From Thermodesulfobacteriota bacterium (GTDB taxonomy: Bacteria > Desulfobacterota > Desulfobulbia > Desulfobulbales > JAGXFP01), in contig JBDLJC010000004.1 in the NCBI GenBank assembly GCA_039714535.1, positions 5,693 to 69,692 on the forward strand: a DNA stretch of 64,000 bases, given 5' to 3'. Position 1 is the first letter of the stretch, and each line of letters opens with the position of its first letter. A program made the position numbers and the translations under genes. Positions 17,223 through 45,551 of this stretch are shown here, one piece after another. Under the pieces are notes generated by a model. The model was not told where the DNA came from and ran no database searches. It was given only the letters and a program-made list of their open reading frames with translations.

Positions 17223-17465
17223 CCGACCTCTCTGCCGGTGACACTCGTAGGATTACACATCTCCGGCAGGGCTATTCTGATCTCTTTTGCATTACTGCCA
17301 ATACGCGGCGGAAAAGCGTAGAACAAAAAGCACAGTCCAACACCAGAAATGTTCTTACACCTTTTGGGGGAAAATAATCTAAGTAGTACACCAAATATAC
17401 AGCTGAATGGCGATTGATATCACTTGTCAGAATTTGATGTGATACAGGTAAAGGAGGAACAGCAA

Positions 17466-18233: not shown

Positions 18234-18279
18234 CAATCGCCGGCAGGCTTTCTTTTAAACTTAGTGCAAGAAAGAGGAA

Positions 18280-21179: not shown

Positions 21180-21193
21180 GGAAGGTAACAACG

Positions 21194-23287: not shown

Positions 23288-24313
23288 ATGACGGCACAAA
23301 AGATCAATATCGCTGTTGCAGGTTGCGGCTACTGGGGACCGAATATTATCCGCAGCTTTCATTCTCTGCCAAATTGTCATGTAAAAACGGTCTGCGACAT
23401 GGCAACAGAACGCCTAACCCACATCGGAAAACTATACCCGGGAACCAAAACAACATGCAGCTATGAAGAGTTATTGAAAGACAAGGACTTAGATGCCATC
23501 GCCATCGCCACACCGGTACGTTTTCACTATAAAATGGCCAAGGAAAGCCTGTTGGCCGGCAAACACACCTTCGTGGAAAAACCGATGGCCACAAGTGCAA
23601 AAGAGTGCGAAGAACTCATCCGGATTGCCAGAGAAAAGAAACTATCCCTCATGGTCGGCCATACCTTCGTCTACTCCGCGTCAGTCATGAAGATCAAGGA
23701 GATCGTAGAAGCCAGAGACCTTGGCGACGTTCTCTACATCAGCTCCCGCCGTTGCAACCTCGGCCTCTATCAGACGGACATCAATGTTGCCTGGGACCTG
23801 GCCCCCCACGACATCTCCATTATCCTCTACATCCTCAATCAGATGCCGATAAGTGTCAACTGCCAGGGCAAGGCCCATGTGAACAAAAAAATTGAAGATG
23901 TCACCAACATGACTTTGAACTACAGCAACGGCGGCTTCGCCACCATTCAAAGCAGCTGGCTTGACCCCAACAAGGTCAGGGAGATGACCTTTGTGGGCAG
24001 CAAGAGAATGCTTGTCTACAACGATCTCGAAGCCATGGAAAAAATAAAAATATATGACAAACGGGTCGAAACGCCGCCCCATTATGACACCTTTGCGGAT
24101 TTCCAGTACTCCTATCACTACGGTGATTCATACTGCCCTTATGTCAAACAGAAAGAACCCCTGCTCGTGGAAACAGCACACTTCCTCGACTGCATAAGCA
24201 ACGGCCACAAACCTTGTTCCTCGGGGAAAGAGGCCTTGGATGTTATTCAAATTCTCGAAGCTGCGTCCAAATCCCTTAAAAACGGGGGGGGGCAGATTTC
24301 TGTCGCTTCCTAG
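23288..24313 (+). CDS. Gfo/Idh/MocA oxidoreductase (WbpB/WlbA-like sugar 3-dehydrogenase)
   Basis: GCGYWG, ATP..H, VEKPM, WDLAPHD. Confidence 0.88.
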   Translation: MTAQKINIAVAGCGYWGPNIIRSFHSLPNCHVKTVCDMATERLTHIGKLYPGTKTTCSYEELLKDKDLDAIAIATPVRFHYKMAKESLLAGKHTFVEKPMATSAKECEELIRIAREKKLSLMVGHTFVYSASVMKIKEIVEARDLGDVLYISSRRCNLGLYQTDINVAWDLAPHDISIILYILNQMPISVNCQGKAHVNKKIEDVTNMTLNYSNGGFATIQSSWLDPNKVREMTFVGSKRMLVYNDLEAMEKIKIYDKRVETPPHYDTFADFQYSYHYGDSYCPYVKQKEPLLVETAHFLDCISNGHKPCSSGKEALDVIQILEAASKSLKNGGGQISVAS

Positions 24314-24325
24314 AGACACGATACC

Positions 24326-24820
24326 ATGCAAATAATATCATCTGATGTCCGCCTCGGCCATGACGTGAAAATCTCTGAGTTTGTCAATCTGTACGGCTGT
24401 GTGGTCGGCGACAAGACCAAAATCGGCCCATTTGTTGAGATTCAAAAAGGGGCGCGCATAGGCGCATCCTGCAAAATTTCGAGCCACACCTTTATTTGTG
24501 AAGGTGTGGCAATTGAAGACCGGGTCTGCGTCGGCCACAGCGTCACTTTCATTAACGACAAATACCCCCGTGCGACCACCAGGGATGGCCAGCTGCAAAC
24601 AGAAGCCGACTGGGTCTGCGAGACCATTCAGGTACAACAGGGGGCCTCCATCGGTTCCGGGGCGGTCCTGCTGGGAGGGATTACCATAGGAGAAAACGCG
24701 ATCGTCGGCGCGGGCAGCGTTGTCACAAAAGATGTGCCGAAAAACACTATTGTGGCCGGCAATCCAGCTCGAATTTTACAACAGGCAAAGGACAATGACG
24801 ATGAAAGTACCTCTTCTTGA
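24326..24820 (+). CDS. Hexapeptide-repeat N-acetyltransferase (WbpD/WlbB-like)
   Basis: EIQKGARIG..CKISSHTFICEGV, FINDKYPRA, VGAGSVVTKDVP..VAGNPAR. Confidence 0.88.
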   Translation: MQIISSDVRLGHDVKISEFVNLYGCVVGDKTKIGPFVEIQKGARIGASCKISSHTFICEGVAIEDRVCVGHSVTFINDKYPRATTRDGQLQTEADWVCETIQVQQGASIGSGAVLLGGITIGENAIVGAGSVVTKDVPKNTIVAGNPARILQQAKDNDDESTSS

Positions 24821-25904
24821 TCTGAAACACCAATACGAAATCATCCAAAAGGAAGCCCTCGCTGCGATTGCCAAAGTGCTGGACTCAACATCATTTGCAG
24901 GCGGCCCCTTTGTGGAACAGTTTGAAAAACATTTCGCCGAGTTTTGTCAATGCCGGTATGCCGTCGGGGTCGGCAGCGGCACCGACGCCCTCTGGATCGC
25001 CCTGCGTGGGCTTGGGGTCGGAAAGGGAGATGAGGTTATTACCGTGCCAAACTCCTTTATTGCCACCGCAGAGGCAATCAGCCAATGCGGGGCCGTCCCC
25101 GTTTTCGTGGACATCGATGAAAAAACATACACCTTGAACCCGGCCCTGCTGGAAGCCGCCATCACCTCTCGAACCAAGGCAATCATCCCGGTCCACCTGT
25201 ATGGTCAGATGGCCGATATGGATCCCATTATGAGCATTGCCGCAAAGCACGGCCTGCAGGTTATAGAAGATGCAGCCCAGGCGCATGGGGCCGAATATAA
25301 AGGCCGGAGGGCCGGGTCCCTGGGCCGGGCCGGGTGCTTCAGCTTCTATCCCGGTAAAAATCTCGGGGCATACGGCGAGGCCGGGGCGGTAGTCACCAAC
25401 GATGAGAAACTGGCCGAACAGATGCGAATCTTTCGCGACCACGGCCAGCAACACAAATACCATCACACCGTCATCGGCTGGAATTCCCGCATGGACGGCA
25501 TCCAGGGGGCCATTCTGGATGTCAAACTGAAACATCTGCCGCTCTGGAATGAGGCGCGCCGAAAAAATGCCGAACTCTACACTACTCTGCTCGCGGATAT
25601 GAAGGGGGCGGTCCTGCCCCATGAAGCGGAATATGCCAGACATGTCTATCACATCTACCCGGTCCGCCTGAAAAACCGGGACCAGGTCCTCTCCCAATTA
25701 GCTGAAAAGAGCATCTCCTGCGGAATCCATTATCCGGTGCCCATCCATTTGCAACAAGCATATTCCGGTATGGGCCAGGACAAAGGGCTATTTCCAGTGA
25801 CGGAAAAATATGCCCGAGAGCAGCTCTCACTCCCTATGTTCCCGGAGTTGACCGAGCAACAGATCAGCTACGTGGTAGAGGAGATGAAACAAGTTATCAA
25901 ATAA
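24801..25904 (+). CDS. DegT/DnrJ/EryC1/StrS aminotransferase (WbpE/WlbC-like)
   Basis: VPLLDL, SGTDAL, PVHLYGQ, EDAAQAHG, FSFYPGKNLGAYGE, NSRMD, IHYPVP. Confidence 0.92.
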   Translation: MKVPLLDLKHQYEIIQKEALAAIAKVLDSTSFAGGPFVEQFEKHFAEFCQCRYAVGVGSGTDALWIALRGLGVGKGDEVITVPNSFIATAEAISQCGAVPVFVDIDEKTYTLNPALLEAAITSRTKAIIPVHLYGQMADMDPIMSIAAKHGLQVIEDAAQAHGAEYKGRRAGSLGRAGCFSFYPGKNLGAYGEAGAVVTNDEKLAEQMRIFRDHGQQHKYHHTVIGWNSRMDGIQGAILDVKLKHLPLWNEARRKNAELYTTLLADMKGAVLPHEAEYARHVYHIYPVRLKNRDQVLSQLAEKSISCGIHYPVPIHLQQAYSGMGQDKGLFPVTEKYAREQLSLPMFPELTEQQISYVVEEMKQVIK

Positions 25905-25974: not shown

Positions 25975-27018
25975 ATGCCAAACCAGGTACAGATCATAAA
26001 CCCCGGCGACTCGCCCCGGTGGGACCAGCAGATGCTCGCCACCGGCAAGGCCTCTTTTTTTCATTCAGCCGCATGGGTAGCCACGCTTTCAGAAACATAC
26101 GGGTATGCGCCTTGTTACTTCGTATTAAGAACAGATGACAATAAGGTAAGAGCACTGGTGCCGCTGATGGAAGTACAGAGTTTCATTACCGGCAAGCGAG
26201 GAGTCTCCCTCCCCTTTTCAGACTACTGCGAACCTATCTGGGAGACAGCTGAAGATGCAGCCCAGCTCCTGACCTGCATCCTCAGCTATGGCAAAAAGCA
26301 GGGGTGGAAATACCTGGAGCTGCGGTCGGGCAAAAGAATGCCTGCCGGCCAGCCTGCGTCAAACACATTTTTGGGCCATACCCTGAATCTTTCCCTCGGA
26401 GAGAACGAGCTCTTTGCCTCTTTCCGGGAGAGCACCAGAAGAAATATAAAAAAAGCCGCGGCCTCCGAGGTCGTCTGCAAGACCAGCAAGAGCCTTCAAG
26501 CCATAGAGCAATTTTATGCCTTAAACTGTTTAACCAGAAAACGGCATGGTATTCCACCCCAACCCTTTTCCTTCTTCAAGAACGTCTATAAACACATCAT
26601 TTCCCAGGACAAAGGCGTCGTTGTCCTGGCCTCACACAAAAACAAAGTCATCGCCGGGGCTGTCTACCTTCATTTCGGCAGGCAGGCAATGTACAAATAT
26701 GGTGCCTCAAACGGTGATTACCAGCAACTGCGGGCCAATTATCTGGTCATGTGGCAGGCAATCCAGCTCTATTGCCAAAAAGGGTTTGAATCCCTGGACA
26801 TGGGAAGAACGGACCCGAAAAACAAAGGGTTGAACCAGTTTAAAAACGGCTGGAGCCCCCGAACCCAAGAGCTGGTTTATTATAAATATTCGCTCAAAAA
26901 ACCTCTTCCCCGCCAGGAGGAAAAGAACTTTCCATCCCTGAGAGAAAGGACTATGCAGCATCTGCCTGTTCCGCTCCTAAGGATGATTGGCGCCGTCGCA
27001 TACAGGCATGTTGCATAA
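25975..27018 (+). CDS. FemAB-like GNAT acyl/aminoacyl transferase
   Basis: SLPFSDYC, RRNIKKA, HGIPPQP, YKYGAS, DMGRT..GL.QFK.GW. Confidence 0.82.
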   Translation: MPNQVQIINPGDSPRWDQQMLATGKASFFHSAAWVATLSETYGYAPCYFVLRTDDNKVRALVPLMEVQSFITGKRGVSLPFSDYCEPIWETAEDAAQLLTCILSYGKKQGWKYLELRSGKRMPAGQPASNTFLGHTLNLSLGENELFASFRESTRRNIKKAAASEVVCKTSKSLQAIEQFYALNCLTRKRHGIPPQPFSFFKNVYKHIISQDKGVVVLASHKNKVIAGAVYLHFGRQAMYKYGASNGDYQQLRANYLVMWQAIQLYCQKGFESLDMGRTDPKNKGLNQFKNGWSPRTQELVYYKYSLKKPLPRQEEKNFPSLRERTMQHLPVPLLRMIGAVAYRHVA

Positions 27019-27035: not shown

Positions 27036-28001
27036 ATGGCCGTCCATACCCTCTACTACAATCTCAAAAAGTATATTCCCCGAACAATGCAGCTCTTTCT
27101 GCGCCGGCAGGCGGTGCTAGGCCAACGGCACTTGTGTGGCAAGGTCTGGCCCATTGATGAATCGGCCAAAACCAAACCAGCTTTCTGGCAAGGTTGGCCG
27201 GAACAGAAAAAATTCGCCCTGATCTTGACCCACGACGTGGATACGGCAAAAGGGGTTGAAAACTGCAAAGAGCTTATGACACTGGAGTTACTAATGGGGT
27301 TCCGCTCCTCTTTCAATTTTGTACCGGAACGCTACACCGTTCCAGCACAGCTTCGGCATAAACTGACCTCCAACGGTTTTGAGGTCGGCGTGCACGGTCT
27401 AAACCATGACGGCATGCTGTATCGCTCCAGAGAAATATTCCGGGCCCGGGCCAGGCGCATCAACCAATACATTGGAGAGTGGCAGGCGGCAGGCTTTCGT
27501 TCGCCATCGATGCACCATGAACTCGACTGGATCCATGATTTGAACATCGAGTACGATGCCTCCACCTTCGACACAGATCCCTTTGAGCCGCAATCCACCG
27601 GGGTCCGCACCATATTTCCCTTCTGGGTCCGGAACGGTTCACCAGAGAATGGCTATGTTGAATTGCCCTACACCCTGCCTCAGGATTTCACTCTCTTCGT
27701 GCTCATGGGCCAGAAAAATGTCGAAATATGGCAGAAAAAGCTGGACTGGATCGTGGCCAATCGCGGGATGGTCTTGCTGAATGTGCATCCGGATTATATG
27801 AATTTCTCCAAGGAAAAGAACGTGCTGGAAGAGTATCCAGCACGGTACTACCAACAGTTTCTCGAATACATCAAGGAACGATACGAAGGAGATTACTGGC
27901 ATGTTCTACCAAAGGATATAGCCAAATTGTTCAAACCCAAAAAGGTCAAAGGACCAAGAGCGTCTCTGGAAAACAGCTGGGGTAGACCCTGTCAAATGTG
28001 A
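27036..28001 (+). CDS. Polysaccharide deacetylase family (NodB-like) protein
   Basis: WPEQKKFALILTHDVD, EVGVHG..H, GFRSP, YDAS, ELPYT, HPDY. Confidence 0.8.
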   Translation: MAVHTLYYNLKKYIPRTMQLFLRRQAVLGQRHLCGKVWPIDESAKTKPAFWQGWPEQKKFALILTHDVDTAKGVENCKELMTLELLMGFRSSFNFVPERYTVPAQLRHKLTSNGFEVGVHGLNHDGMLYRSREIFRARARRINQYIGEWQAAGFRSPSMHHELDWIHDLNIEYDASTFDTDPFEPQSTGVRTIFPFWVRNGSPENGYVELPYTLPQDFTLFVLMGQKNVEIWQKKLDWIVANRGMVLLNVHPDYMNFSKEKNVLEEYPARYYQQFLEYIKERYEGDYWHVLPKDIAKLFKPKKVKGPRASLENSWGRPCQM

Positions 28002-28299
28002 AGGAGGGAGGGAAATATGTTCAGTAAAAATGAGAAACTCATGCTCCGGCAACAAAAAAGGGACCAACTGCTTCACAGCTTAAACAATGGTCCAAATTTA
28101 GAACCGCCAGCACTTGGACATCTTAAAACGGCCGACTACGTCCGGTGTGGTCATATCTCACAAGAATTGTGAGATTCCTGTTGCAAGTTTGCCTTTGTGC
28201 CAAAGCCATGGGCAAGAATATGAGGTAATAGGTTTGAATGGCCTCGCTAATCTAACCAATAGCAAATTACACGTTATTATTTATCGAATGGGTGCGCAC

Positions 28300-29079
28300 A
28301 TGAATATATTCAAAAACAAAAAATCAACCCAGGAGCCTGAGCATATTCTCTTTAAGAAAGTGAAGATAAGCAATATCAATTTCACTGAAGCTTACACAAC
28401 GATAAAAAACAATATTGCCGCCAAAGGTTACGTCTGCCTGACAGATGTTGGAGTTACTATTATGGCGACCAAGGATGAAGAGCTAAGGCGGGCCATTGGA
28501 AAATCGCTCATAAGTATTCCTGATGGCATGCCGCTGGCATGGTATGCCAAGCTATTGGGATGCAAAAAAGTTGAAAGAATTGCGGGGGGCGAGCTGTTAA
28601 AGCGCTTATTAGAGGAAAACAACGATCTTACCCATTTTCTCCTTGGTGACACAGATCAGACCATTACACGGGTTATTCAGAAAGCGAAGAATGCCAACAA
28701 AAAAATCAGGATAACCGGCTACAGTCCACCGTTCAGAAAAAATTTCACCCCAGAAGATACCAGGCAGATTTTCGATAAAATAAATAAAGCCGCCCCTGAC
28801 ATAATATGGGTCAGTTTTGGTGGCGGCAAGCAGGATAAATGGATGAACCTGAACATGGATCTGCTTGATCGAGGAGTCATGATCGGGGTCGGGGCGGCGT
28901 TTCGATTCTACATCGGCGGACTTAAGATCCCGCCCCAGATAATCCAGAATCTCGGTTTGCAATGGTTCTATAGAATGATGGGGGATCCAATAAGGTGGTT
29001 AAAACGACCATTCCCTCTGCGTCTTAAATTTTTAATGCATTTTCCAGTAGAAGTCATATACAACCGGCGTCTCAAATAA
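28300..29079 (+). CDS. WecB/TagA/CpsF (GT26) glycosyltransferase
   Basis: PDGMPL, ERIAG, SPPF, PDIIWV.FG..KQD, GVGAAF, GLQWFYR. Confidence 0.9.
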   Translation: MNIFKNKKSTQEPEHILFKKVKISNINFTEAYTTIKNNIAAKGYVCLTDVGVTIMATKDEELRRAIGKSLISIPDGMPLAWYAKLLGCKKVERIAGGELLKRLLEENNDLTHFLLGDTDQTITRVIQKAKNANKKIRITGYSPPFRKNFTPEDTRQIFDKINKAAPDIIWVSFGGGKQDKWMNLNMDLLDRGVMIGVGAAFRFYIGGLKIPPQIIQNLGLQWFYRMMGDPIRWLKRPFPLRLKFLMHFPVEVIYNRRLK

Positions 29080-29363
29080 ATATACAGGAGCTTAAGGTCG
29101 GAAAAGAATCGGTATCGTTATGCGAAAAAAGGCTAGTTCATAAACTCTAAGGTCTACACCTTGTTCTTGAATAAAGTTCCAACAAAATACGGCGGAAATA
29201 AGCCTTTCCGTTGATAGACATGATGATTCTTTTTATGTGAGCATGTCTTATATGAGTCTTTTGTGAATGAGGTTGGCTAACCCAAACGACTGCTTTCAAC
29301 ATTACTGATAAAAATTATAACAATGACGTTTTAACCACGAAACAGTGGAGAGAGGGGTACATT

Positions 29364-30605
29364 GTGAAGATTTATATCGAAACAGATGGATGTTCACGAA
29401 GAATTAACGAGTTAACTTCTTTACACAAGTACTTTGAAGCTAATAATCACACCTTTGTAACTCGTCCCGAAAAGGCTGACTTTATTATTGTGGGCACATG
29501 CGCCTTTAAGAAAAAGGAGGAATCCGATTCCATTAAACGTGTCAGGTTTTTGAAAAGAATTAAGGCTAAACTCTTAGTTTATGGCTGCTTACCAGACATA
29601 GCCCCCACAAGATTTCATGAAGAGTTTAATGGTCTTGATTTCTTGGCCCCTAAGGATATTGAACGAATTGATTCATATTTTGAAGATAGTTTGATTAAAT
29701 TTCAAGATATTCAAAACCAAAATATTATTCCTGAAAGCATGAAATCAAACTCCCTTCAATCCGCTATCGGAAAATTTAAAGAAGAGTTTGAATTCTCTAA
29801 CAAATTCCTGGTAAAGGCGAAGGATTATGCGGGTAAAAAAATAAAGAGTTCCCTGAAGAGAAACGAAGAGAATTTTTATTTATTTATATGCAGAGGATGC
29901 CTTGGGAAATGTACCTACTGCGCTATAAAACGTGCAATTGGACCGCTAAAAAGCACTGATATTGGTGAAATTGTAGATCAATTTAATGAAGGAATTACTT
30001 TAGGGCACAAAACATTTACGATTCTTGGTGACGATGTGGGCGCCTACGGCAGGGAGCGGAATGACACGTTTCCCAATCTTTTGAGCCGTTTACTAGAGGA
30101 GTCAAATGGCCATAACAAATCATTAAAACCGCATAAAAATGGCATGATCGGTTTTCATATCGAAGAAATTCATCCGAAGTGGATGACACTCTATAAAAGG
30201 GAATTACACGAACTTATTTCTACACAAAGAATTAAAAGTATCCTCTGCCCCATTCAATCAGGAAACAACAGGATTCTGGAATTAATGAAAAGGGAACATG
30301 ACGCTGAAAGTATTTTTGAGGTTATGTCCAAAATTCGCTCCTCGCACCCTCAAATTAAACTTAGGACTCAGATTATTGTTGGCTTTCCTTCCGAAACGGA
30401 AAATGAGTTCTATGACACTTTGCACCAGGTTAACAATAATCTATTCGATGAGGTGACGGTTTTTCCATATGACCCTAAAGAAAAAACTCCAGCGAATTAT
30501 ATAGAGCCACACCTTGCAGACCAAGTGATATCCGAACGGGTTAATAAAGCCTTGAAATTTTTTAAGACCCATAAAATCAGTGCACATTTAAGCTGCCAGA
30601 ACTAA
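29364..30605 (+). CDS. Methylthiotransferase-like radical SAM enzyme (UPF0004 + radical SAM, no TRAM domain)
   Basis: N-terminal TDGC / GTCAF / YGCL Cys triad, CLGKCTYC radical-SAM motif, PIQSG..ILELMKR, IIVGFPSET; ends shortly after the barrel. Confidence 0.85.
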   Translation: MKIYIETDGCSRRINELTSLHKYFEANNHTFVTRPEKADFIIVGTCAFKKKEESDSIKRVRFLKRIKAKLLVYGCLPDIAPTRFHEEFNGLDFLAPKDIERIDSYFEDSLIKFQDIQNQNIIPESMKSNSLQSAIGKFKEEFEFSNKFLVKAKDYAGKKIKSSLKRNEENFYLFICRGCLGKCTYCAIKRAIGPLKSTDIGEIVDQFNEGITLGHKTFTILGDDVGAYGRERNDTFPNLLSRLLEESNGHNKSLKPHKNGMIGFHIEEIHPKWMTLYKRELHELISTQRIKSILCPIQSGNNRILELMKREHDAESIFEVMSKIRSSHPQIKLRTQIIVGFPSETENEFYDTLHQVNNNLFDEVTVFPYDPKEKTPANYIEPHLADQVISERVNKALKFFKTHKISAHLSCQN

Positions 30606-30693
30606 GCAAAAGGACGAAACTTACAAAGATTACAAGTTGCGCATAACACCATTCAAGCTCCATGTTGATATAGTGAGCGGGGTATATTGTCTC

Positions 30694-31581
30694 ATGTCAA
30701 TCAAAGAAAATATAAATAACCAGTTTGAGCACAAAGAAGGTATTGCTGCTTACTTTTCAACGCAGAAAGATGCCTGGCGGAAAAATTATGAATCGGATGT
30801 TTCCGGCAAAGTTAGCCTTTATAAAAGAGACATAATCAATAGAAAAAACACGGTACTGCATCTGCTCGATAAATATACTTATAAGGATTCTCTGGATATC
30901 CTAGATATCGGGTGCGGTGCCGGGATTCTAATGGAAGACATGTTGCAGAGAGGCCACAATGTTGTTGGTTCTGACATATCTGAAGAAATGATAGAGGAAG
31001 CCAAAAAGAATACGGCTGCTTTTTCCTCCGATAGAAAAAAAATTATGCCGGGAGATCTTGAGAATATTTCTTTTGGGAATAATACCTTTGATTTCGTCAC
31101 TTGCGTTGGTGTGTTGGAGTACCAAAAGAGCGACAAAACAAGTATTTGCGAAATAAGCAGAGTCCTTAACAATGGAGGTTTTGCTATTGTTACCGTCCCC
31201 AACCTATTAAGATTTAAAAATATTCTTGATCCGTATTACTACATTAAGCTAATTCCCAGGATTCTCAGGAAGACACGCTGGAGGGCCAAACCCAAGCATT
31301 CTGATCTGGTTAAGTCGTTTGAACACAATGAATATTTCACCAATAGAAAATTTTATTATGGACAGCTCAATCAGCTTTTTCGTTCATATAACCTGGAGAT
31401 AGTTGATTACGTGAGCATTGGCTACAGTCCACTATTAACGATATGGCGCAAAAGTATTCTGCCCAAGGCAATGGCCATCAAGGTTGGTAATTACCTGGAG
31501 AATAAATCTTCCTCTCAGCGTTCTTTCTTAAAATGGGTTCCTAACAGGTGGGTAATTTGCTTGAAAAAGACAACCGGTTGA
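30694..31581 (+). CDS. Class I SAM-dependent methyltransferase
   Basis: ILDIGCGAG, GSDISEEM, FDFV, EISRVL..GG. Confidence 0.9.
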   Translation: MSIKENINNQFEHKEGIAAYFSTQKDAWRKNYESDVSGKVSLYKRDIINRKNTVLHLLDKYTYKDSLDILDIGCGAGILMEDMLQRGHNVVGSDISEEMIEEAKKNTAAFSSDRKKIMPGDLENISFGNNTFDFVTCVGVLEYQKSDKTSICEISRVLNNGGFAIVTVPNLLRFKNILDPYYYIKLIPRILRKTRWRAKPKHSDLVKSFEHNEYFTNRKFYYGQLNQLFRSYNLEIVDYVSIGYSPLLTIWRKSILPKAMAIKVGNYLENKSSSQRSFLKWVPNRWVICLKKTTG

Positions 31582-32762
31582 TGCCGGCAATTATACTTAC
31601 AAGTCATACGATGGGGCTTGGGGTTATACGCTCTCTTGGAATCATGGGCGTACCTCTGTATGTCTTCTATTATGACAAGATAGACATGGGATATGTATCG
31701 AAATATGTAAAGGAAGCTATCCATTGCCCTCACCCGGAAAAGAATGAGAGTGAGTTTATAAAAGTTATTGTTGAATATGCGGAACAGTTGACGGGATCTC
31801 TGTTAATACCTGCTGATGATGCAACATTGTCGGTAGTTTCAAAAAACAAACCTACATTCGAAAAACATTATAAAGTTGCATGTCCTGGTTGGGAAACAAC
31901 CATCAAGTATATTGACAAAAAATACACATATGAGCTTGCCGATAAAATTGGAGTGCCATGCCCAAGAACCATTGTTCCCCAAAACATTGACGAAGTACAT
32001 AGTTACTCAAGAGATATTCAATACCCCTGTATTGTTAAACCTTGTGAAAGCCATAAATACTATGAGGTTTTCAAGAAAAAAATGACGATTGTTCATAATC
32101 AGGAAGAAATGGTCAGCGCTTATCAGGAAGCGACGCATGAAGGGATTGAAGTTATGATCCAGGAATATATTCCTGGCGGTGATTCAAACGGGGTTAATTA
32201 CAATTCACATATACATGAAGAAAAAACAGTAGTTGATTTTACGGCTGAAAAAGTTCGCTACTCTCCACCTGGGATCGGAGTACCACGTGTGGTTGTCTCA
32301 AAATATATACCTGAGGTCATTGATTCAGGCCGCAAGATTCTCAGAGCTATGGGCTACCATGGTTATTCTTGTACTGAATTTAAAAAGGATCCCCGGGACG
32401 GTATTTATAAATTAATGGAGATAAATGGACGTCATAATCGCTCGACTCTTCTTGCCGTCCGGTGCGGGATTAACTTTCCCTGGATTGAATATGCTCATTT
32501 CTTCGATAAGGAGATTAAATTTAACCATGACTGCAAGGATGGTATTTATTGGGTAGACGAGCTTCGGGACATTATTCACAGTATCAAATATTTCAAGGAA
32601 GAACGTTATAGTTTCAAACAGTACATTCGTCCATATATAAACCCCAATATATTTGCCATATTGGATGTAAAAGATATGAGACCTTTTTTTAAAAGAATAT
32701 GCGATTTAATTAAGATGGCAGTGAGTGTTGTTGCCCTCCGATCATCAAATATTAAGGAGTGA
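31581..32762 (+). CDS. ATP-grasp carboxylate-amine ligase (D-aspartate-ligase-like)
   Basis: GLGVIRSLG, LLIPADD, DK, PCIVKP, IQEYIPG, EFKKDPRDG..LMEINGR; TGATG coupling to the upstream gene. Confidence 0.85.
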   Translation: MPAIILTSHTMGLGVIRSLGIMGVPLYVFYYDKIDMGYVSKYVKEAIHCPHPEKNESEFIKVIVEYAEQLTGSLLIPADDATLSVVSKNKPTFEKHYKVACPGWETTIKYIDKKYTYELADKIGVPCPRTIVPQNIDEVHSYSRDIQYPCIVKPCESHKYYEVFKKKMTIVHNQEEMVSAYQEATHEGIEVMIQEYIPGGDSNGVNYNSHIHEEKTVVDFTAEKVRYSPPGIGVPRVVVSKYIPEVIDSGRKILRAMGYHGYSCTEFKKDPRDGIYKLMEINGRHNRSTLLAVRCGINFPWIEYAHFFDKEIKFNHDCKDGIYWVDELRDIIHSIKYFKEERYSFKQYIRPYINPNIFAILDVKDMRPFFKRICDLIKMAVSVVALRSSNIKE

Positions 32763-32766
32763 AGTC

Positions 32767-33552
32767 ATGAGAACTGATGCTATAGCGTTGGAGGAAAAGA
32801 GACTTGAAGAAGTGTCGACAGTCGACGATTACCAAGCTTTTCATGAGCGGCACCGCATTTTCCCTGAAATATTTGAGAATAGAAACCATAACAACATTTT
32901 AGACACATCTGCAGGGGTGGGCGTCCTAGGCAACAGAATAAAGCAAGCTTATGACGCAGAACTCTTATGCAATGATATCTGTCCAAAATGTTTAAAAACA
33001 ATGGAAAAGAGCGGTCTTAGCACACTATCATTTGATATAGATGATAAGGATAAACCGTTCCCTCTTGAAGACAAAAGTTTTGATGCCGTAATATCCTTGG
33101 CCACCATAGAGCATGTGATTCAGATTGATAATTACATGGAACAAATACACCGTATATTAAAAGATGACGGATATTTATACATATCCGCACCGAACTATAA
33201 CGGTCTAGCGTACTTAATTCCCATGTTGTTAACAGGGAAGACCTTTCATGATCCATTATCCGAACCGGACAGATATGAATTTTATGCTCATGTCCGCTAT
33301 TTTACACATCGGACACTTCTTGATTATGTCACTACATTCGGGTTTTCTCCCGAAGCAGTTTACCTTGCCCTACCCCAGGATAGTTCCCGTTATAAGAAAT
33401 TAAAGGGAAAATCGAAAGTTAAAGCAGCAATGTTCAGACACAGCATGAGACTGCTATATAGCGTTTCTCCAAGATGGGCGTCAGAACCGGTAATTTGTTT
33501 TAAAAAAGCCTCTGTATCATCAAGTGGCAAGCCCAGGAATATTATTCTGTAA
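32767..33552 (+). CDS. Class I SAM-dependent methyltransferase
   Basis: ILDTSAGVG, SFDAVISLATIEHV, RILK..G.L...PN, HVRYFT. Confidence 0.85.
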   Translation: MRTDAIALEEKRLEEVSTVDDYQAFHERHRIFPEIFENRNHNNILDTSAGVGVLGNRIKQAYDAELLCNDICPKCLKTMEKSGLSTLSFDIDDKDKPFPLEDKSFDAVISLATIEHVIQIDNYMEQIHRILKDDGYLYISAPNYNGLAYLIPMLLTGKTFHDPLSEPDRYEFYAHVRYFTHRTLLDYVTTFGFSPEAVYLALPQDSSRYKKLKGKSKVKAAMFRHSMRLLYSVSPRWASEPVICFKKASVSSSGKPRNIIL

Positions 33553-33676
33553 CGACACGAGATATCGCTAAAAGCAATATAAATTCCGCCATCTAGTATA
33601 CATATGAAATAAAGTCTGCATTCCTCGATAACCTAAGTAACGCTCTGCTAAATACTGTAGGTAAAAAGGAGGACAA

Positions 33677-35107
33677 ATGATTACTCCAATAATCCTTGCT
33701 GGGGGTTCCGGAACGCGCCTTTGGCCGCTTTCCCGGAAACTTTATCCAAAGCAGCTTTTGCCACTTCTGGGTGATCAATCACTTCTGCAGCAAACTATTA
33801 GCCGGCTGGCGAATTTTGAAGGCATTGATGCGCCACTTGTTATCTGCAATGATGAACATAGGTTCCTGGTGGCAGAACAGTTGCGTAATGTGTCGATAAC
33901 ACCTTCAGCAATTCTGCTTGAACCACTCGGTCGCAACACCGCGCCAGCCACTGCTGTGGCGGCAATTCATGCACTTTCCTCCAAGGATGCCCCGCTCCTT
34001 CTAGTCCTGCCGGCTGACCACCTTATTAGGAACACCGAGGCCTTTCGCGGTGCGGTTCTCTCCGGGGTGTCAGCCGCCAAAGAGGGTAAACTAGTCACCT
34101 TTGGCATCATACCGGATAAGGCTGAAACAGGATATGGCTATATAAAACAGGGAGAGATTGCAAGAAACCTTTCGGATGGGGAGTCCGAGTGTTTTATTGT
34201 TGAGAACTTTATTGAAAAGCCGAATCTGAACCTGGCCATGGAATATGTCGAAAATGGCAATTATCTCTGGAATTCCGGCATGTTCCTCTTTCGCGCCGAC
34301 TCTTTTCTGGAAGAACTGCAACAGTTCGCTCCGAAAATGGTGAAATTGTGCCACAAAGCCCATGCGACCTTAACCAGCGATCTTGATTTTCAAAGATTGG
34401 ACAAAGAGGCATTTACCGCCTGCCCAGCTGATTCCATCGACTACGCAGTCATGGAAAAGACCGGTAAAGCAGTGGTTGTGCCAGTGGCCCCTGGCTGGAG
34501 CGACATAGGTTCCTGGTCAGCATTATGGGAAGTTGGTGACAAGGACCCTGAAAATAACGTCACCCAGGGCGATGTCCTTACCCATGACACCCATAATTCG
34601 TATCTCTATGCTCATCACCGACTGCTGACTACCGTGGGAGTAAAAGACCATGTGGTAATTGAAACTGCTGACGCCGTGCTGGTCGCCCATAAAAACCAGG
34701 TTCAAGATGTAAAAAAAATTGTCACACAGCTAATCGCCGAAAAAAGAACTGAGGCCGACCTCCACAGCCAGGTATTTCGCCCTTGGGGATCGTATGAAAG
34801 CATTACGACCGGTGATCGCTTCCAGGTCAAGAGGATTATAGTCAAACCAAATGCCATTCTTTCCCTGCAGAAGCATCACCATCGCGCAGAACATTGGATC
34901 GTGGTAAAGGGGACTGCGAAAATAACCCGCAACAAAGAAACATTTATACTAAGTGAAAACGAATCTACTTTTATCCCGCTCGGCATCCAACATCGTCTCG
35001 AGAACCCCGGTGTTATTCCCTTGGAGCTGATTGAGGTACAGAGTGGCTCCTATCTGGGCGAGGACGATATTGTTCGTTTTACTGACAATTATGGTCGCGC
35101 AAACTAA
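33677..35107 (+). CDS. manC: Mannose-1-phosphate guanylyltransferase / mannose-6-phosphate isomerase
   Basis: ILAGGSGTRLWPLSR..PKQ, GRNTAPA, ETGYGYI, WNSGMF, SIDYAVME, RPWG, QKHHHRAEHW. Confidence 0.96.
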   Translation: MITPIILAGGSGTRLWPLSRKLYPKQLLPLLGDQSLLQQTISRLANFEGIDAPLVICNDEHRFLVAEQLRNVSITPSAILLEPLGRNTAPATAVAAIHALSSKDAPLLLVLPADHLIRNTEAFRGAVLSGVSAAKEGKLVTFGIIPDKAETGYGYIKQGEIARNLSDGESECFIVENFIEKPNLNLAMEYVENGNYLWNSGMFLFRADSFLEELQQFAPKMVKLCHKAHATLTSDLDFQRLDKEAFTACPADSIDYAVMEKTGKAVVVPVAPGWSDIGSWSALWEVGDKDPENNVTQGDVLTHDTHNSYLYAHHRLLTTVGVKDHVVIETADAVLVAHKNQVQDVKKIVTQLIAEKRTEADLHSQVFRPWGSYESITTGDRFQVKRIIVKPNAILSLQKHHHRAEHWIVVKGTAKITRNKETFILSENESTFIPLGIQHRLENPGVIPLELIEVQSGSYLGEDDIVRFTDNYGRAN

Positions 35108-35361
35108 TTACCAGATAAAACCCCACTGACTCCAGCTGCTAGTGTGCGGTCCACTTCATCCCAATACTCCAAAACAATTAATTCGTAATTCATAAAGCTA
35201 ATCATCGTCTTTTGAAAGTAGATCAACGAATACGACAAAAATAATCCTTTTAGTTGATTGACCTGGCTATTCGTTTTTGAAAAAATATACACAAGATTTA
35301 CTTTTGCATGCCGTTGGCGGGCAAAATGATCGTTTTCTCTTGAAATCAAAATCAGAAGGAA

Positions 35362-36534
35362 ATGTATAAGATGATAACAGGACATAATATCATATGTTTT
35401 GGTTCCTCCTCCTGGCAATATCCAGGTTTACAGCAAACAACCATGAGATTACTGGCGGACCAAAATAGAATCTTATATATCAACGCCCTCGGCAGCCGCA
35501 ATATTTCTTTGAAATTATCTCAGTGCAGCTTTTATTTAAGAAGAATTCAAAGACAGTTCCAACAAAATCAAACCATGTCAGAAAAAACCGTGGTTTGCAA
35601 TCCCCTGATCATCCCTTTTGTCTACCACTCTCTAACAACCAAATTTAACCGTTTACTACTCCGTGCTCAATTTCACCGTTTGCTGCCCAAGATAAATTTT
35701 CGCAAATACATATTATGGGTAGGCACACCAACGGCAGCCCCATTTCTCGATTTATTCGATCCTTCTTTAACTATTTATAATCCTGTTGATCGTTACCATG
35801 CCTTCTCGTTTGTCAATGGTGACAAAATTCGTGCTTACGAAAAGCGGATAGGGGCAAGGGCGGATGCAGTTATCTGTACATCTGATGCGATAAAAAATGA
35901 CATGTCTGCGTTCAACCAGCATGCCTTTGCTGTTACCCATGGCGTGGATGTAAATCATTTCCATTCCGCGCTGAACCAGGAGAACAAGATAGAGGATATA
36001 GACGATCTGCCTAAGCCTATAATCGGCTTTTTCGGTGGTCTTTCGGAAAGGGTCAACTATCAACTGATCCGAAAAATCGCATGCCGATATCCAACGGCAA
36101 GCATCGTACTGATTGGCAAGCAACTTTCCAGCCTGGCAGAATTGGAAGGCCTGCAGAATGTTCATGTCCTCGGATTTCGGGATTTCAGTTTGCTGCCCCA
36201 TTATATGAAACGCTTTTCAGTGTGCCTGATTCCCTATCACGTGAATAAACTTATGGAGGCGGTAGACCCTATAAAACTACGCGAATACCTTTGTCAGGGA
36301 AAACCGGTGGTCAGTGTCGATCTGCCGGAAGTCAGAAAACTTAAAGACCTGGTTTACATCGGCAGAGATGAGGAGGAGTTTGTCGAAATGGTGGGAAAAG
36401 CAATGGCTGAAAAAAGTCTCTCGCTTGCAGAGACCCGTATCAAGGCTGCCCGTCAAAGTGAATGGCCAGTGAAGATGGCAGAAATGGCAGAGATTGTTAA
36501 CGACGCTTTTATGCGAAAAAATCAGGAAAATTAG
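35362..36534 (+). CDS. GT4-type glycosyltransferase (TuaH-like)
   Basis: HGVD..HF, PIIGFFG, CLIPY, DPIKLREYL..GKPVVS. Confidence 0.85.
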   Translation: MYKMITGHNIICFGSSSWQYPGLQQTTMRLLADQNRILYINALGSRNISLKLSQCSFYLRRIQRQFQQNQTMSEKTVVCNPLIIPFVYHSLTTKFNRLLLRAQFHRLLPKINFRKYILWVGTPTAAPFLDLFDPSLTIYNPVDRYHAFSFVNGDKIRAYEKRIGARADAVICTSDAIKNDMSAFNQHAFAVTHGVDVNHFHSALNQENKIEDIDDLPKPIIGFFGGLSERVNYQLIRKIACRYPTASIVLIGKQLSSLAELEGLQNVHVLGFRDFSLLPHYMKRFSVCLIPYHVNKLMEAVDPIKLREYLCQGKPVVSVDLPEVRKLKDLVYIGRDEEEFVEMVGKAMAEKSLSLAETRIKAARQSEWPVKMAEMAEIVNDAFMRKNQEN

Positions 36535-36535
36535 A

Positions 36536-37882
36536 ATGTTGGAGAACATTATCATTGTACTTCTTATCCCCTTAGGCCTGCTTTGCCTGGTCAAACCTTT
36601 TCTCCTTCTGTACCTGCTGACAACCGTAATGGTCTTTAAATTTGCCCCGTCAGTAAGTTATTACGAAACTACTCCAATAATAAAAATCGGATCCATTAAT
36701 CTTTTTTCCACCGATTACCTGATCTTAATATTATTTTTTCTCTTGATGATTTTTATGGCAAAAAATTTGATATCTAAACGCCCCCTTCTGGGAAAATTAA
36801 TGGAGGGCCAGGTAAGCAAATTAGTTTCCGTTTTATTTCTCTGGTCTATTTTTATTGGTATCCTTTCCTATGGCAAAGGCTTCGCGTTACAGAATGTATT
36901 GCGGAATATTTCCACGGAAGCACTGATGTTCATCGCCATCCTTCTACCAACCATCCCCGAGGTGGACAAAAAAAAGGAACGATTCTTCAAATACAGCGTA
37001 TTGCTAGGGCTACTACTAGTCGGCTTTTCTTTATGGAAATACTTTATTTCGCATGACGTTGAATTAACCAGTAGCGGCACAATGCGAACCCTGTTAGGCA
37101 ACACCGTAATTATTTTCATGCTACCCATATGCTACTTGCTCTTTTACAGCAGATACTACCGCCAACATAAGTTACTTTCTTGCACCATAATTGCCCTGTT
37201 GACCATCGGCATTACTTTGACCGGCCATCGTTCCGGGTTGATTACTCTGGCTTTTGTAATACTTTTGTACTTCACGACAAAGGACTTCAATATTGTAGAT
37301 TATTTATGGATTCCAACTGCCGGTATAACAATGGTCCTTCTGGTTGTCTTGATTTCCTCGATGTTAAGTATAACCCCCGGCAAAACTCTTTTAGGAGATA
37401 TGGTGCTGCGTGCTGGCGACACCCTCAATCTGGAAAACAAAACAACTATGGAAAGGCTGTCAAAGTGGGACGATTCCCTTGAAATAACCAAGAGATATCC
37501 GCTCCTTGGCTTGGGGCGATTCCCTGTGCATACCGACTCTATAGCCGATGACTCTAACCAGAACCTAAAGGATTCGTTTACAGACTTCAACAGAGCGACC
37601 CATAACATGTTCGCGGAACAACTTGCCAACACAGGTCTGTTGGGGTTGTCAGTAATGGCCTTTTTCATTTACGGAGTCCTCATGCAATTTAAAAAAATTT
37701 CCGCTATGGATCATAGATATGCCGATTTTTTAAAAGTCTATTTCTTATCTTTCCTGGTTTTCAGTCAGTTCAACACTTCTTTTTCTGACCCGCTGGGCAA
37801 GATATTTCTCTTCATTATGCTAGGTTTTTTAAACGTACAGCAGATGAAGGAATCAGGCTCGCTTCCGGCCTTTTCATCGTGA
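36536..37882 (+). CDS. Wzy polymerase / O-antigen ligase family membrane protein
   Basis: About 10+ TM helices; LTGHRSG, R..W, PLLGLG, HN.F..L..TGLLG (Wzy_C). Confidence 0.85.
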   Translation: MLENIIIVLLIPLGLLCLVKPFLLLYLLTTVMVFKFAPSVSYYETTPIIKIGSINLFSTDYLILILFFLLMIFMAKNLISKRPLLGKLMEGQVSKLVSVLFLWSIFIGILSYGKGFALQNVLRNISTEALMFIAILLPTIPEVDKKKERFFKYSVLLGLLLVGFSLWKYFISHDVELTSSGTMRTLLGNTVIIFMLPICYLLFYSRYYRQHKLLSCTIIALLTIGITLTGHRSGLITLAFVILLYFTTKDFNIVDYLWIPTAGITMVLLVVLISSMLSITPGKTLLGDMVLRAGDTLNLENKTTMERLSKWDDSLEITKRYPLLGLGRFPVHTDSIADDSNQNLKDSFTDFNRATHNMFAEQLANTGLLGLSVMAFFIYGVLMQFKKISAMDHRYADFLKVYFLSFLVFSQFNTSFSDPLGKIFLFIMLGFLNVQQMKESGSLPAFSS

Positions 37883-37980
37883 TTCAAGTTTCTGCTGAAG
37901 ATTTTTGGTGACCAGTTTACCACCCTGGCACCGCCAGACAACCGGCATAAGCATCACATATTGCAAGGTTAGACACCCAA

Positions 37981-39387
37981 ATGGATAATTCAATCAAACA
38001 GAAACTGTATTCAGGTGGGTTGTGGGTTGTGGGGCTTAAAATACTGGCATTGCCGGTTGGTCTTATTCTTGTCGCATTGTTGACCAGGATGCTCTCGGCT
38101 GAAGAGATGGGAGTATATTTTCTCTTTTTTAGCCTTGTCGATTTTCTCGTGATCTTTTCCTTGCTAGGGATGGAAAAACCAATCGTTCGCATTGTGTCCC
38201 AATCATTGGCCCTTAAATTGCCGGGGCGTGCCTGGCAAGCGGTTCGTAAGGCGTTGCGCATGGGCGTACTGTCAGCCTCGACAGTTGCGGCATTGCTTGT
38301 TTTAGGAGTTGGCCAATTTGTGTCCGAAAAGATATTTGACTCTGCTCTGATGAGTGAGCTTATTTTCTTACCGGCAATATGGTTGTTCCTGCTCACCCTT
38401 CAGAGGTTGGTTGCCGAGTCTTTCAGAGGCCTTCATGATATCAGGTTTGCGACGTTGTTTAATGGGTTGATTCCAAATTTTCTCTGCGTCATAGTGCTGG
38501 CATTGCTTTTCTGGACGAATGTGAAAATAAATCTCTCAACAATCTTATTTATCGTAATCGGTGCTTATGCATTAAATCTTCTCTTGGGGTATGTGACATT
38601 ATCTAGAAGTACTTCTGAATTGAGTGGTGATGGCTCGGTTTTTGTCTCTGAAATATTGAAGACTTCATGGCCGTTTTGCATTTCAGCCATTTTTTTAACA
38701 GGCCTGCAACAAGGCCATCTTTGGTTACTTGGGTTTTGCAGTACTACAGAAAGTGTAGCCATATATGGAGCGGCCTGGCGGGTTGTGATTTTGTTAACAA
38801 CAACACTCCAAATCGTTAGACTGGTAATTCCTGCCATGGTCGCCAAGCTTTACGCCCAAAAAAAGTATAAGGATCTTGAAAAGGTTCTTAGAAGCACCGC
38901 AACAATTGCCGGTGTTCCGTCCATCATTGGTTTGTTATTAATTCTAATTTTCGGAAAAACAATACTTCTTCATCTCTATGGAGAAAGTTATGCCAGTGGT
39001 TATTCAATATTAACCATTTTGGCAATTGCACACATAATAAATATTTTCACTGGAGTGCCAGGTGTGCTCTTAATGATGTCTTCAAACGAAAAAGTACTAT
39101 TGGCAATCTCTATATTCAGCGGTTCTTTGAGTATTTTGGTTAGTTTTATCCTGGTGAACCAATTGGATTATGTCGGTGTTGCTATAGGGGCTGGAGTCGG
39201 AATAGCTATCCAGAATTTACTTATGGCAGGCTATTGCCTAACAAAAATGGATATAAATACTTTCATTAGCTTAAGAGAAATATATCTTTTCAAAGAAACT
39301 TTTTTGTCAATTATTGCTGCTTACAAGCAGAGATTAATCCTTAAAACAAATAACTTTGGGCACAATACTGATACAGAAAAAATTTGA
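37981..39387 (+). CDS. wzx: Wzx flippase
   Basis: Multi-pass membrane protein; LTRML..E.G.Y, VAIYGAA.R, LYGESY motifs. Confidence 0.88.
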   Translation: MDNSIKQKLYSGGLWVVGLKILALPVGLILVALLTRMLSAEEMGVYFLFFSLVDFLVIFSLLGMEKPIVRIVSQSLALKLPGRAWQAVRKALRMGVLSASTVAALLVLGVGQFVSEKIFDSALMSELIFLPAIWLFLLTLQRLVAESFRGLHDIRFATLFNGLIPNFLCVIVLALLFWTNVKINLSTILFIVIGAYALNLLLGYVTLSRSTSELSGDGSVFVSEILKTSWPFCISAIFLTGLQQGHLWLLGFCSTTESVAIYGAAWRVVILLTTTLQIVRLVIPAMVAKLYAQKKYKDLEKVLRSTATIAGVPSIIGLLLILIFGKTILLHLYGESYASGYSILTILAIAHIINIFTGVPGVLLMMSSNEKVLLAISIFSGSLSILVSFILVNQLDYVGVAIGAGVGIAIQNLLMAGYCLTKMDINTFISLREIYLFKETFLSIIAAYKQRLILKTNNFGHNTDTEKI

Positions 39388-39420
39388 TAAATATCATAAT
39401 TGCAAGAGCAGGTTGAAAAA

Positions 39421-40374: not shown

Positions 40375-40459
40375 CTCGTGTCTGTCCAAAACTTAGAATT
40401 TTTCTTCGAAATCAAGGAACTGTGAAATTGAAACATTCAAACAATTTCAGGCGAAAAAA

Positions 40460-41422: not shown

Positions 41423-41487
41423 AAATTAAAGAATCTGGCAACACGATAGTTTGCCGCACGAAACTAAACTGTTAGGGATAATCCATC

Positions 41488-45315: not shown

Positions 45316-45491
45316 CTTTGTTCCTCGCATAACAAATTGTGGTTCCGTTTGAAACCTTTGACGTTGATTTGAATAGAGTCGCCTAGCGCTTTGACTCTAT
45401 TCACCATCTGCCGAAGAAAAAGTTACAATATCAAGCGGCTACCAACGGAACTACTGTACAGTTACAAAGTAATTTCTTTATACAATCTATC

Positions 45492-45541
45492 ATGTAGGGG
45501 TTGTCCTAGATAATGAAAATTATTTAGGACAACCCCTACAT
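45492..45541. terminator. Long hairpin after beta-helix gene
   Basis: atgtaggggttgtccta / taggacaacccctacat 17-bp perfect stem, extended to a GAAA loop. Confidence 0.7.
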
Positions 45542-45551
45542 TTATGCTGGA

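Follow-up and report, generated by a model that had tools for sequence, protein, structure and literature searches.

A gene at positions 29364–30605 of the stretch analysed here encodes a 413-residue two-cluster radical S-adenosylmethionine (SAM) protein that resembles the methylthiotransferases (MTTases) MiaB and RimO but has no TRAM domain. The stretch, referred to below as the window, comprises 64,000 nucleotides (nt) from a Thermodesulfobacteriota bacterium (GenBank assembly GCA_039714535.1, contig JBDLJC010000004.1, positions 5,693–69,692 of the forward strand). The gene heads a group of four co-oriented, tightly packed open reading frames (ORFs) at 29364–33552, which forms the last part of a longer conserved cassette starting in the window at position 21989. 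The TRAM-less enzyme probably decorates a polymer and not the translation machinery, as judged from its sequence and gene context. The reading preferred here, held at slightly less than an even chance, is that it serves as an accessory enzyme of an exopolysaccharide locus, not as a modifier of tRNA or the ribosome, and most likely adds a methylthio group to a sugar-borne substituent.

A two-cluster radical SAM protein without a TRAM domain

A Pfam analysis of the 413-residue protein identified UPF0004 (PF00919) at residues 2–93 (57.2 bits) and Radical_SAM (PF04055) at residues 175–355 (59.8 bits). Neither TRAM (PF01938) nor TRAM_2 (PF18693) matched at E ≤ 0.01, and the protein ends about 18 residues past the radical SAM core. 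The TIGR00089 model scored 222.6 bits against a cut-off of 251, with a match that stops at profile position 354 of 429; similarly, the MiaB, RimO and MtaB models match only up to positions 356–361 of 416–437. The equivalog scores were 183.8 bits for TIGR01578 (e-MtaB type; cut-off 314.7), 162.9 for RimO (356.95), 161.9 for MtaB (357.05) and 151.2 for MiaB (355.3).

The protein possesses a cysteine triad for a putative auxiliary [4Fe-4S] cluster (C10, C46 and C75) together with a radical SAM core (C179, C183 and C186, in a CxxxCxxC motif). In an alignment of 20 members, C10 is nearly invariant and the other five are invariant. A larger residue comparison covered 42 close and 40 distant members of the family along with 10 canonical sequences. 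All 82 family members in this set have cysteine at the last five positions, and C10 is present in 80, the remaining two being gaps. The PxQSG, GFPxET and MxR motifs of the MTTase core are likewise conserved in the TRAM-less family, the counts among the 82 members being P296 77, Q298 72, S299 81, G300 81, M308 82, R310 82, G340 82, P342 81 and E344 82.

An AlphaFold2 model built on 20 relatives had a predicted local distance difference test (pLDDT) score of 87.1. The model superposes on the MTTases with Z scores of 32–35, including MtaB (model 9a6d, Z 35.4), RimO (34.1) and MiaB (7mjw, 33.9), and the next structural class is represented by MgmA (Z 25.6). Residues 1–406 of the model align with residues 18–389 of the 441-residue MiaB chain; therefore, the TRAM part of the solved chain has no counterpart in the model. 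In a profile search against the PDB, the best match to a solved structure was RimO (4jc0, E 1.9e-49). A helical insert of about 75 residues (95–170) lies between the two domains with low pLDDT and is absent from the canonical enzymes. The gene starts with GTG preceded by a GGAG-rich stretch, and the upstream gap of about 285 nt (29080–29363) contains no small ORF that could encode a TRAM or carrier protein. The Pfam matches, the points at which the profiles end, the fold alignment and the best 120 of 643 relatives described below thus all bear out a first-pass annotation of the window, made from the sequence alone, which had noted both sets of iron–sulfur cysteines and no TRAM domain.

The TRAM-less family and its conserved cassette

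A word-seeded search of 5.8 billion proteins identified 643 relatives (E ≤ 0.001), of which the best 120 are 311–434 residues long with 40–100% identity and 75–100% coverage; 119 have the PF00919 and PF04055 combination and none has a TRAM family. Their sources include Pseudomonadota, DPANN archaea, Geobacteraceae, Verrucomicrobia, Negativicutes, Latescibacteria and Desulfuromonadales, and several sources automatically annotate family members as MiaB or CDKAL1. The same two-domain composition was found in 21 of the 30 nearest clusters of the ESM Atlas. Scores against a profile made from 20 members were at least 604 bits for family members and at most 172 bits for canonical MTTases. The 413-residue protein belongs to a large TRAM-less family that extends across many bacterial and archaeal phyla.

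Phylogenetic analysis was performed on 53 rows consisting of 20 of the 120 listed relatives (picked for spread), 18 more distant ORFs (L021–L040) and 15 canonical sequences from six genomes, with two fragments (L069 and L074) and duplicate loci (L066–L068) omitted. In a careful IQ-TREE analysis, the TRAM-less (38) and canonical (15) rows fell on opposite sides of a branch with an ultrafast bootstrap (UFBoot) of 100 and a Shimodaira–Hasegawa-like approximate likelihood ratio (SH-aLRT) of 99; the tree is unrooted and places its one e-MtaB row on a long branch. Since the TRAM columns had been dropped by a 30% fill filter, the TRAM domain did not drive this split. In a quicker tree, MiaB, RimO and MtaB each formed a supported group on the canonical side. 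The 413-residue protein thus falls outside the clades of MiaB, RimO, MtaB and, as judged from one row, e-MtaB. Clustering with the canonical enzymes, which would have contradicted the new substrate class proposed in the first-pass annotation, was not recovered. Taken jointly with the glycan and methylthio reading as a whole, assignment of the protein to a fifth clade, one lacking TRAM, within the MiaB/RimO/MtaB radical SAM family is a tentative proposal that falls just short of even.

The housekeeping enzymes, which the first-pass annotation had expected elsewhere, were indeed located on other contigs of the source genome (3.35 Mb, 79 contigs, 95.9% complete) as full-length MiaB (497 bits), RimO (497 bits) and MtaB (418 bits), all above cut-offs. 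Of five other carrier genomes searched, four have at least three full-length canonical MTTases above cut-off. In two of the carriers (G001 and G002) three each were typed, as MiaB, MtaB and RimO, and an archaeal carrier (G003) has one, typed as e-MtaB. The 413-residue protein appears from its sequence to work like, and to descend from, the MTTase family. It has both cluster motifs, yet the missing TRAM domain, the scores below the curated cut-offs and the placement in a separate clade speak against labeling it MiaB, RimO or MtaB.

To characterize the gene neighborhood, 127 related loci were collected, 47 from species-representative genomes and 80 from metagenomes. In 96 of them an ORF spans 80% or more of the query; merging at 90% identity or more left 81, and 17 with fewer than four ORFs were dropped. 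A close set of 34 non-redundant loci has a homologue at least 38% identical, with up to 8 kb of DNA per side, and many of the loci are short. Within this set, a class-I methylase similar to either methyltransferase of the window (MT1 or MT2; Table 1) occurs in 21 loci, the ATP-grasp protein in 17, the DegT aminotransferase in 15, the deacetylase-like protein in 12, the FemAB-like protein in 11, the priming transferase in nine, the acetyltransferase in eight and the oxidoreductase in seven. The recurring order is priming transferase, oxidoreductase, acetyltransferase, aminotransferase, FemAB, deacetylase-like protein, an optional second FemAB, radical SAM enzyme, MT1, ATP-grasp and MT2. This order was found in Nitrospirota (L013), a Nanobdellati archaeon (L014), Geobacteraceae (L019/L020), unassigned metagenome-assembled genomes (L016) and metagenome contigs L075, L093/L094 and L100, and is shuffled in L009–L011 and L124.

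In 30 loci with more distant homologues the partners are rare (aminotransferase in eight, FemAB in four, methylase in three and ATP-grasp in two). A scan of 108 neighboring proteins from 21 loci, 15 with distant and six with close homologues, gave as its commonest families Radical_SAM (14), class-I methylases (9), SPASM (6), DegT (5), family 1 glycosyltransferases (GT1; 4), polysaccharide deacetylase (3) and PIG-L (3). The neighbors of distant members include B12-radical SAM enzymes, PIG-L plus GT2, and MMPL or FtsX transport proteins.

Natural gene fusions were also found. A search of longer proteins identified P0121 (813 residues), in which residues 1–373 match the ATP-grasp protein of the window with 49% identity and residues 401–811 match the TRAM-less enzyme with 44%. 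Within a set of 26 longer proteins related to the window ATP-grasp protein, homologues with 42–52% identity are fused to a Wzx-type flippase (P0123), to GT1/GT4 (P0126 and P0127) and to a second ATP-grasp domain (P0122). More distant MTT-like domains, which score 187–222 bits against the family profile and no longer possess the third auxiliary cysteine or Cys295, are also found in composite proteins. In L047 (4791–9119), a 1442-residue ORF combines a methylase, GT1, a WsaF-like part and a C-terminal MTT-like domain; in L043 and L045 (8001–10265 in both; 754 residues), an N-terminal MTT-like domain is joined to a sulfotransferase of the same Pfam family as the pair in the window. A 695-residue form in L041 (7059–9146) with an unannotated N-terminal part lacks the same two cysteines. 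The fusions tie the ATP-grasp protein and the radical SAM scaffold alike to glycan assembly.

The first-pass annotation had described a radical SAM gene followed by methyltransferase, ATP-grasp and methyltransferase genes between GT26 and manC, and had taken the four genes for a module inside a polysaccharide cluster. The gene order agrees with the Pfam and NCBIfam matches, and the neighborhood analysis shows the module recurring in glycan loci of many phyla, with the link between the radical SAM and ATP-grasp proteins backed by one fusion. What did not hold is the extent of the module: the four genes are incomplete, the cassette starting upstream of them. As a separate observation, paralogous pairs of TRAM-less genes, adjacent or a few kb apart, occur in L021, L034, L039 and L125.

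Proposed role in glycan decoration and its alternatives

A 2023 account of the family (PMC10702137) describes four major MTTase clades and three domains, with TRAM present in all members, and gives tRNA (A37) and one aspartate of ribosomal protein S12 as the only known substrates. According to the same account, RimO, the S12 Asp88 beta-methylthiotransferase, is the only known member acting on a non-RNA substrate (PMC10702137). The window protein shares with RimO the UPF0004 domain with its three-cysteine auxiliary cluster and the radical SAM core, and RimO is close both in sequence and in fold. It differs in having no C-terminal TRAM domain, in the helical insert, in Cys295, a GDD motif and Arg13, and in belonging to a separate clade and a glycan locus, while the true RimO of the genome is encoded elsewhere (L002). 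With the tRNA A37 enzymes MiaB, MtaB and e-MtaB it shares the fold, the cluster motifs, PxQSG and GFPxET; unlike them, it has neither a TRAM domain nor an RNA-type context, and it scores 151–184 bits against cut-offs of 315–357. A review of lipid radical SAM enzymes (PMC13459092) mentions methylthiolation only within a generic list. No paper on a TRAM-less MTTase, or on a glycan-directed or glycan-linked one, was found in the full-text literature, a scope that excludes subscription journals and supplementary files.

A role in glycan decoration is well supported because the partner genes recur in the 34 close loci and because of the fusions to ATP-grasp, flippase and glycosyltransferase domains. 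The chemistry (methylthiolation and, still less securely, the sulfonium also envisaged in the first-pass annotation), the substrate and the ligation by the ATP-grasp protein to the polymer are details that we infer. In the proposed pathway, the 3-dehydrogenase-like, 3-aminotransferase-like and N-acetyltransferase enzymes would make a 3-acetamido sugar of the 2,3-diamino type, which the priming transferase would load onto the lipid carrier. The NodB-like enzyme would free the amine, and the FemAB-like transferase, the ATP-grasp ligase or both would then add an amino acid, or another carboxylate, in amide linkage. By analogy to RimO at the S12 aspartate beta-carbon, the TRAM-less enzyme might use its radical SAM cluster to remove a hydrogen atom at an unactivated carbon of the sugar-borne substituent, with the three-cysteine auxiliary cluster delivering a sulfur group, most likely methylthio. 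The two methylases could add further methyl groups (O- or N-). A more specific form of this proposal is rather unlikely as it stands: that the family is a first carbohydrate-directed MTTase branch whose enzymes would modify an acyl or amino-acyl substituent of a 2,3-diamino sugar, hung there by the ATP-grasp or FemAB-like protein, with a methylthio group or a thiol, with Cys295 and Cys411 acting in sulfur delivery or radical quenching.

Several points weigh against the methylthio proposal. Cys295 (window 30246–30248) directly precedes the PxQSG SAM motif in 40 of 42 close and 38 of 40 distant members and in none of the 10 canonical sequences, which have L, I, M or V there. All 42 close members have Asp223-Asp224, in a GDDxGxYG motif, at the position of Q or I within the GQ(N/D) motif of the canonical enzymes, and Arg13 in 41 of 42 replaces an asparagine found in 10 of 10 canonical sequences. 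No methylase was found in 13 of the 34 close loci and no ATP-grasp gene in 17, many of the loci being short. P0121 is known from one metagenomic record of the ENA. The XrtA/PEP-CTERM-type models for the export, chain-length, ATPase, FemAB and deacetylase proteins all score below their cut-offs, and the source genome, at 95.9% completeness, has no match to exosortase (PF09721). No polysaccharide is known to bear a methylthio group derived from a radical SAM enzyme. The proposal is based on sequence, synteny and predicted structure. With two separate methylases next door, the radical enzyme may insert sulfur only, or do something unrelated.

The residue changes specific to the family fit a different substrate and may leave room for a different chemistry. 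With the same glycan role and two-cluster fold, the reaction could be sulfur insertion to a thiol or thioether followed by S-methylation by a class-I methylase, epimerization or dehydrogenation with Cys295 as hydrogen donor, or C-methylation. As a group, these are a serious possibility, while still being improbable on balance. They are favored by Cys295 (78 of 82 members) and by Cys411 (window 30594–30596), a cysteine three residues from the C-terminus that 38 of 42 close members retain and the distant ones lack, as well as by the replacement of the canonical Asn13 and GQ(N/D) and by the class-I methylase that is a neighbor in 21 of 34 close loci. Distant members lie beside B12-radical SAM enzymes, and distant fused relatives persist with the third auxiliary cysteine lost; thus, the scaffold tolerates a change of chemistry. 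On the other hand, all three auxiliary cysteines are kept in the clade of the window protein, and in known enzymes the open three-cysteine site of this fold serves methylthiolation. MtaB, RimO and MiaB are also the nearest structures, about 7 Z units ahead of the next class.

A role in translation would require that a tRNA or ribosomal-protein MTTase had dispensed with its TRAM domain and either relied on an RNA-binding partner in trans or duplicated the housekeeping copies, and that the polysaccharide locus were incidental. The best equivalog matches are to the tRNA t6A (183.8 against 314.7) and S12 (162.9 against 356.95) enzymes, yet both are below cut-off, and the MiaB or CDKAL1 labels from several sources are automatic. 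This explanation is very improbable given that MiaB, RimO and MtaB are all present in the source genome, that the clade is separate with support of 100/99, that the family occurs in one of 60 relatives, that synteny with glycan genes recurs across phyla, that fusions join ATP-grasp, glycosyltransferase and sulfotransferase domains, and that the upstream gap offers no small TRAM or carrier ORF. Decay of a miaB-like gene, or an artefact of gene calling, would account for a protein that is shorter than the canonical enzymes and falls below the TIGR00089 cut-off. It was rejected as practically negligible on the conservation data: the best 120 of the 643 relatives are of similar length, the family-specific C-terminus and the insert at 95–170 are conserved, and a syntenic orthologue with 77% identity exists in a genome of another genus (G015). 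The model is also confident (pLDDT 87.1). What weight is left over goes to possibilities not thought of.

Should the preferred reading of a glycan-modifying methylthiotransferase be true, the MTTase family would be extended to a third substrate class, and an undescribed sulfur-containing sugar decoration would be predicted in environmental anaerobes. If the enzyme is carbohydrate-directed, this would be a sulfur-bearing glycan decoration not yet seen in described polysaccharides. The analysis defines a four-to-ten-gene cassette that enzymologists may reconstitute and corrects automatic "MiaB" and "CDKAL1" labels on such proteins. Uncharacterized radical SAM subfamilies are generally abundant, which tempers the significance.

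The polysaccharide locus and its surroundings

The features of the locus are collected in Table 1. Genes for priming, flipping, polymerization, chain-length control and export are clustered in it, as in a Wzx/Wzy-type exopolysaccharide locus, to which type it belongs.

Table 1. Predicted genes of the polysaccharide locus in window coordinates.
Predicted product	Position	Strand	Basis and remarks
CsgD/LuxR-type regulator	within regulator/export/chain-length block 16398–21973		
Outer-membrane export protein, chain-length determinant, ATPase, tyrosine-kinase-like protein	17424–21973	+	NCBIfam XrtA/PEP-CTERM-type models, all below cut-offs
Polyprenyl-phosphate sugar-phosphate (priming) transferase	21989–23179	+	TIGR03025, 241.5 bits (cut-off 295.55, not reached)
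Gfo/Idh/MocA oxidoreductase, UDP-GlcNAc 3-dehydrogenase-like	23288–24313	+	NF040723, 179.6 bits (cut-off 450, not reached); solved relatives generic Gfo/Idh/MocA only
Hexapeptide-repeat sugar N-acetyltransferase	24326–24820	+	Solved relatives WxcM-like 4mzu, 7s43, WlbB-type 3mqg, QdtC 3fs8
DegT-type sugar aminotransferase	24720–25904	+	Solved relatives 7b0d (1e-117), 2oga, QdtB 3frk (1.9e-107), WbpE 3nyu (1.4e-86)
FemAB-family transferase (family aminoacyl-tRNA dependent)	25975–27018	+	FemAB and Acetyltransf_6; TIGR03019, 132.9 bits (cut-off 260, not reached)
NodB/CE4-like putative de-N-acetylase, 321 aa	27036–28001	+	No Pfam family; TIGR03006 E 4e-5; profile against PDB 3rxz (polysaccharide deacetylase) E 6.4e-5
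GT26 WecG/TagA/CpsF glycosyltransferase	28114–29079, likely start ATG 28300	+	PF03808, 149.3 bits; between deacetylase-like and radical SAM genes
TRAM-less MiaB/RimO-like two-cluster radical SAM protein, 413 aa	29364–30605	+	Pfam, NCBIfam, alignments, fold
Class-I SAM methyltransferase MT1	30637–31581, likely start ATG 30694	+	Methyltransf_11, 78.6 bits; start from homologue N-terminal alignment
Stand-alone ATP-grasp ligase	31548–32762	+	CPSase_L_D2, 36.7 bits; ATPgrasp_Ter; PRK12767-like, 61.4 bits (below cut-off)
Class-I SAM methyltransferase MT2	32725–33552, likely start ATG 32767	+	Methyltransf_23, 53.3 bits; homologue N-terminal alignment
ManC, mannose-1-phosphate guanylyltransferase/mannose-6-phosphate isomerase	33677–35107	+	TIGR01479, 725.8 bits
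GT1/4	35362–36534	+	Pfam
Wzy-type polymerase	36494–37882	+	Wzy_C, 60.5 bits
Wzx-type flippase	37981–39387	+	Polysacc_synt, 40.1 bits
Two adjacent sulfotransferases	39400–40374, 40460–41422	+	Sulfotransfer_3, 106 and 89 bits
GT2	41488–42366	+	Pfam

Homologues of MT1 adjoin the radical SAM gene in other phyla, and those of MT2 in other phyla are 50–62% identical. The only PDB match to a profile of the ATP-grasp protein was 2pn1, an entry for an ATP-grasp protein under the title "carbamoylphosphate synthase large subunit". Single-sequence PDB searches with this protein and the deacetylase-like protein were uninformative. A predicted complex of the TRAM-less enzyme with the ATP-grasp protein scored 0.00 in a run without controls and carries no weight either way. 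For the GT26 protein, the Pfam match begins at residue 134 and an internal methionine is located at residue 63.

The nearest solved relatives of the DegT aminotransferase are 3-aminotransferases, and those of the acetyltransferase are of the 3-N-acetyltransferase type; together these relatives point to a 3-acetamido sugar. The cassette genes resemble the sugar 3-dehydrogenase, 3-aminotransferases and 3-N-acetyltransferases of the WbpB/WbpE/WbpD- and QdtB/QdtC-type 3-amino-sugar pathways in sequence. In the described pathways of these types, FemAB-like, NodB-like, ATP-grasp or radical SAM genes are not known to follow. The solved relatives of the FemAB-like protein include FemX and the Lipid II:glycine glycyltransferase. 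It matches the fold family of FemX/FemAB and of the XrtA/PEP-CTERM-associated FemAB proteins (TIGR03019), with a deacetylase-like gene co-occurring in exopolysaccharide loci, but differs from the latter in its score and in the lack of an exosortase in the source genome.

In the deacetylase-like protein, H66-D67, H120 and H124 are invariant, and its neighbors in the Atlas carry Polysacc_deac_1. In homologous loci of distant phyla its identity is 51–64% in 12 of 13 and 38% in the thirteenth, and among the close loci it is the most conserved member of the cassette, above the radical SAM enzyme. The protein appears to represent an uncharacterized, weakly NodB/CE4-like deacetylase family of exopolysaccharide loci. 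Farther downstream, the paired sulfotransferases suggest that the polysaccharide is sulfated, and a gene of the NAD-dependent epimerase/dehydratase family together with one of the UDP-glucose/GDP-mannose dehydrogenase family (51380–53691, + strand) could supply a uronic acid precursor. Scanning of 27800–35500 yielded 11 promoter-like sites (20.0 expected from shuffled sequences) and 16 terminator-like ones (7.1 expected); no site coincides with an evident operon boundary.

Among 60 relatives searched, a family member was found in one (G015), which belongs to the same family and another genus; none was found in the seven same-genus genomes (completeness 56–98%). The syntenic locus of G015 (L157, G015:C66:33000-52900) has 68–84% amino acid identity from the priming transferase through Wzx. 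The guanine-plus-cytosine (GC) content of the window is 39–44% from GT26 through GT2 (28000–42000) against 50–58% in the surroundings, and is 52–61% in the G015 locus. Because of its presence in one of 60 relatives, the G015 synteny and the GC contrast, the module is considered an accessory part of a variable polysaccharide locus that has probably been exchanged. That the TRAM-less enzyme, the ATP-grasp protein and the two methyltransferases are the tail of a horizontally mobile cassette is, when coupled to the entire glycan and methylthio reading, a possibility given nearly but not quite half of the weight. The GC break falls between the deacetylase-like gene and GT26, and a recent replacement of the low-GC half of the locus from a low-GC donor is suggested.

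Some other features of the window were noted. A Mu-type transposase (rve, HTH_32 and Mu-transpos_C; 57584–59845, + strand) follows a 279-residue ORF without a family (56742–57581, + strand), at a distance of about 15 kb from the variable part. Three large ORFs of 507, 841 and 595 residues (43807–50341, − strand), located a short way downstream of the polysaccharide locus, have no Pfam match at E ≤ 1e-5 and are adjoined by a protein with Golvesin_C/Lcl_C domains (42519–43607, − strand). A cyclic di-GMP-I riboswitch (RF01051, 77.8 bits against a gathering threshold of 35) is located at 15371–15462 (− strand), at the 5' end of a 969-residue M36-like metallopeptidase/tandem-95-repeat ORF (12491–15400, − strand). 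The listed GTG start of this ORF overlaps the aptamer, and the real start is probably further downstream.

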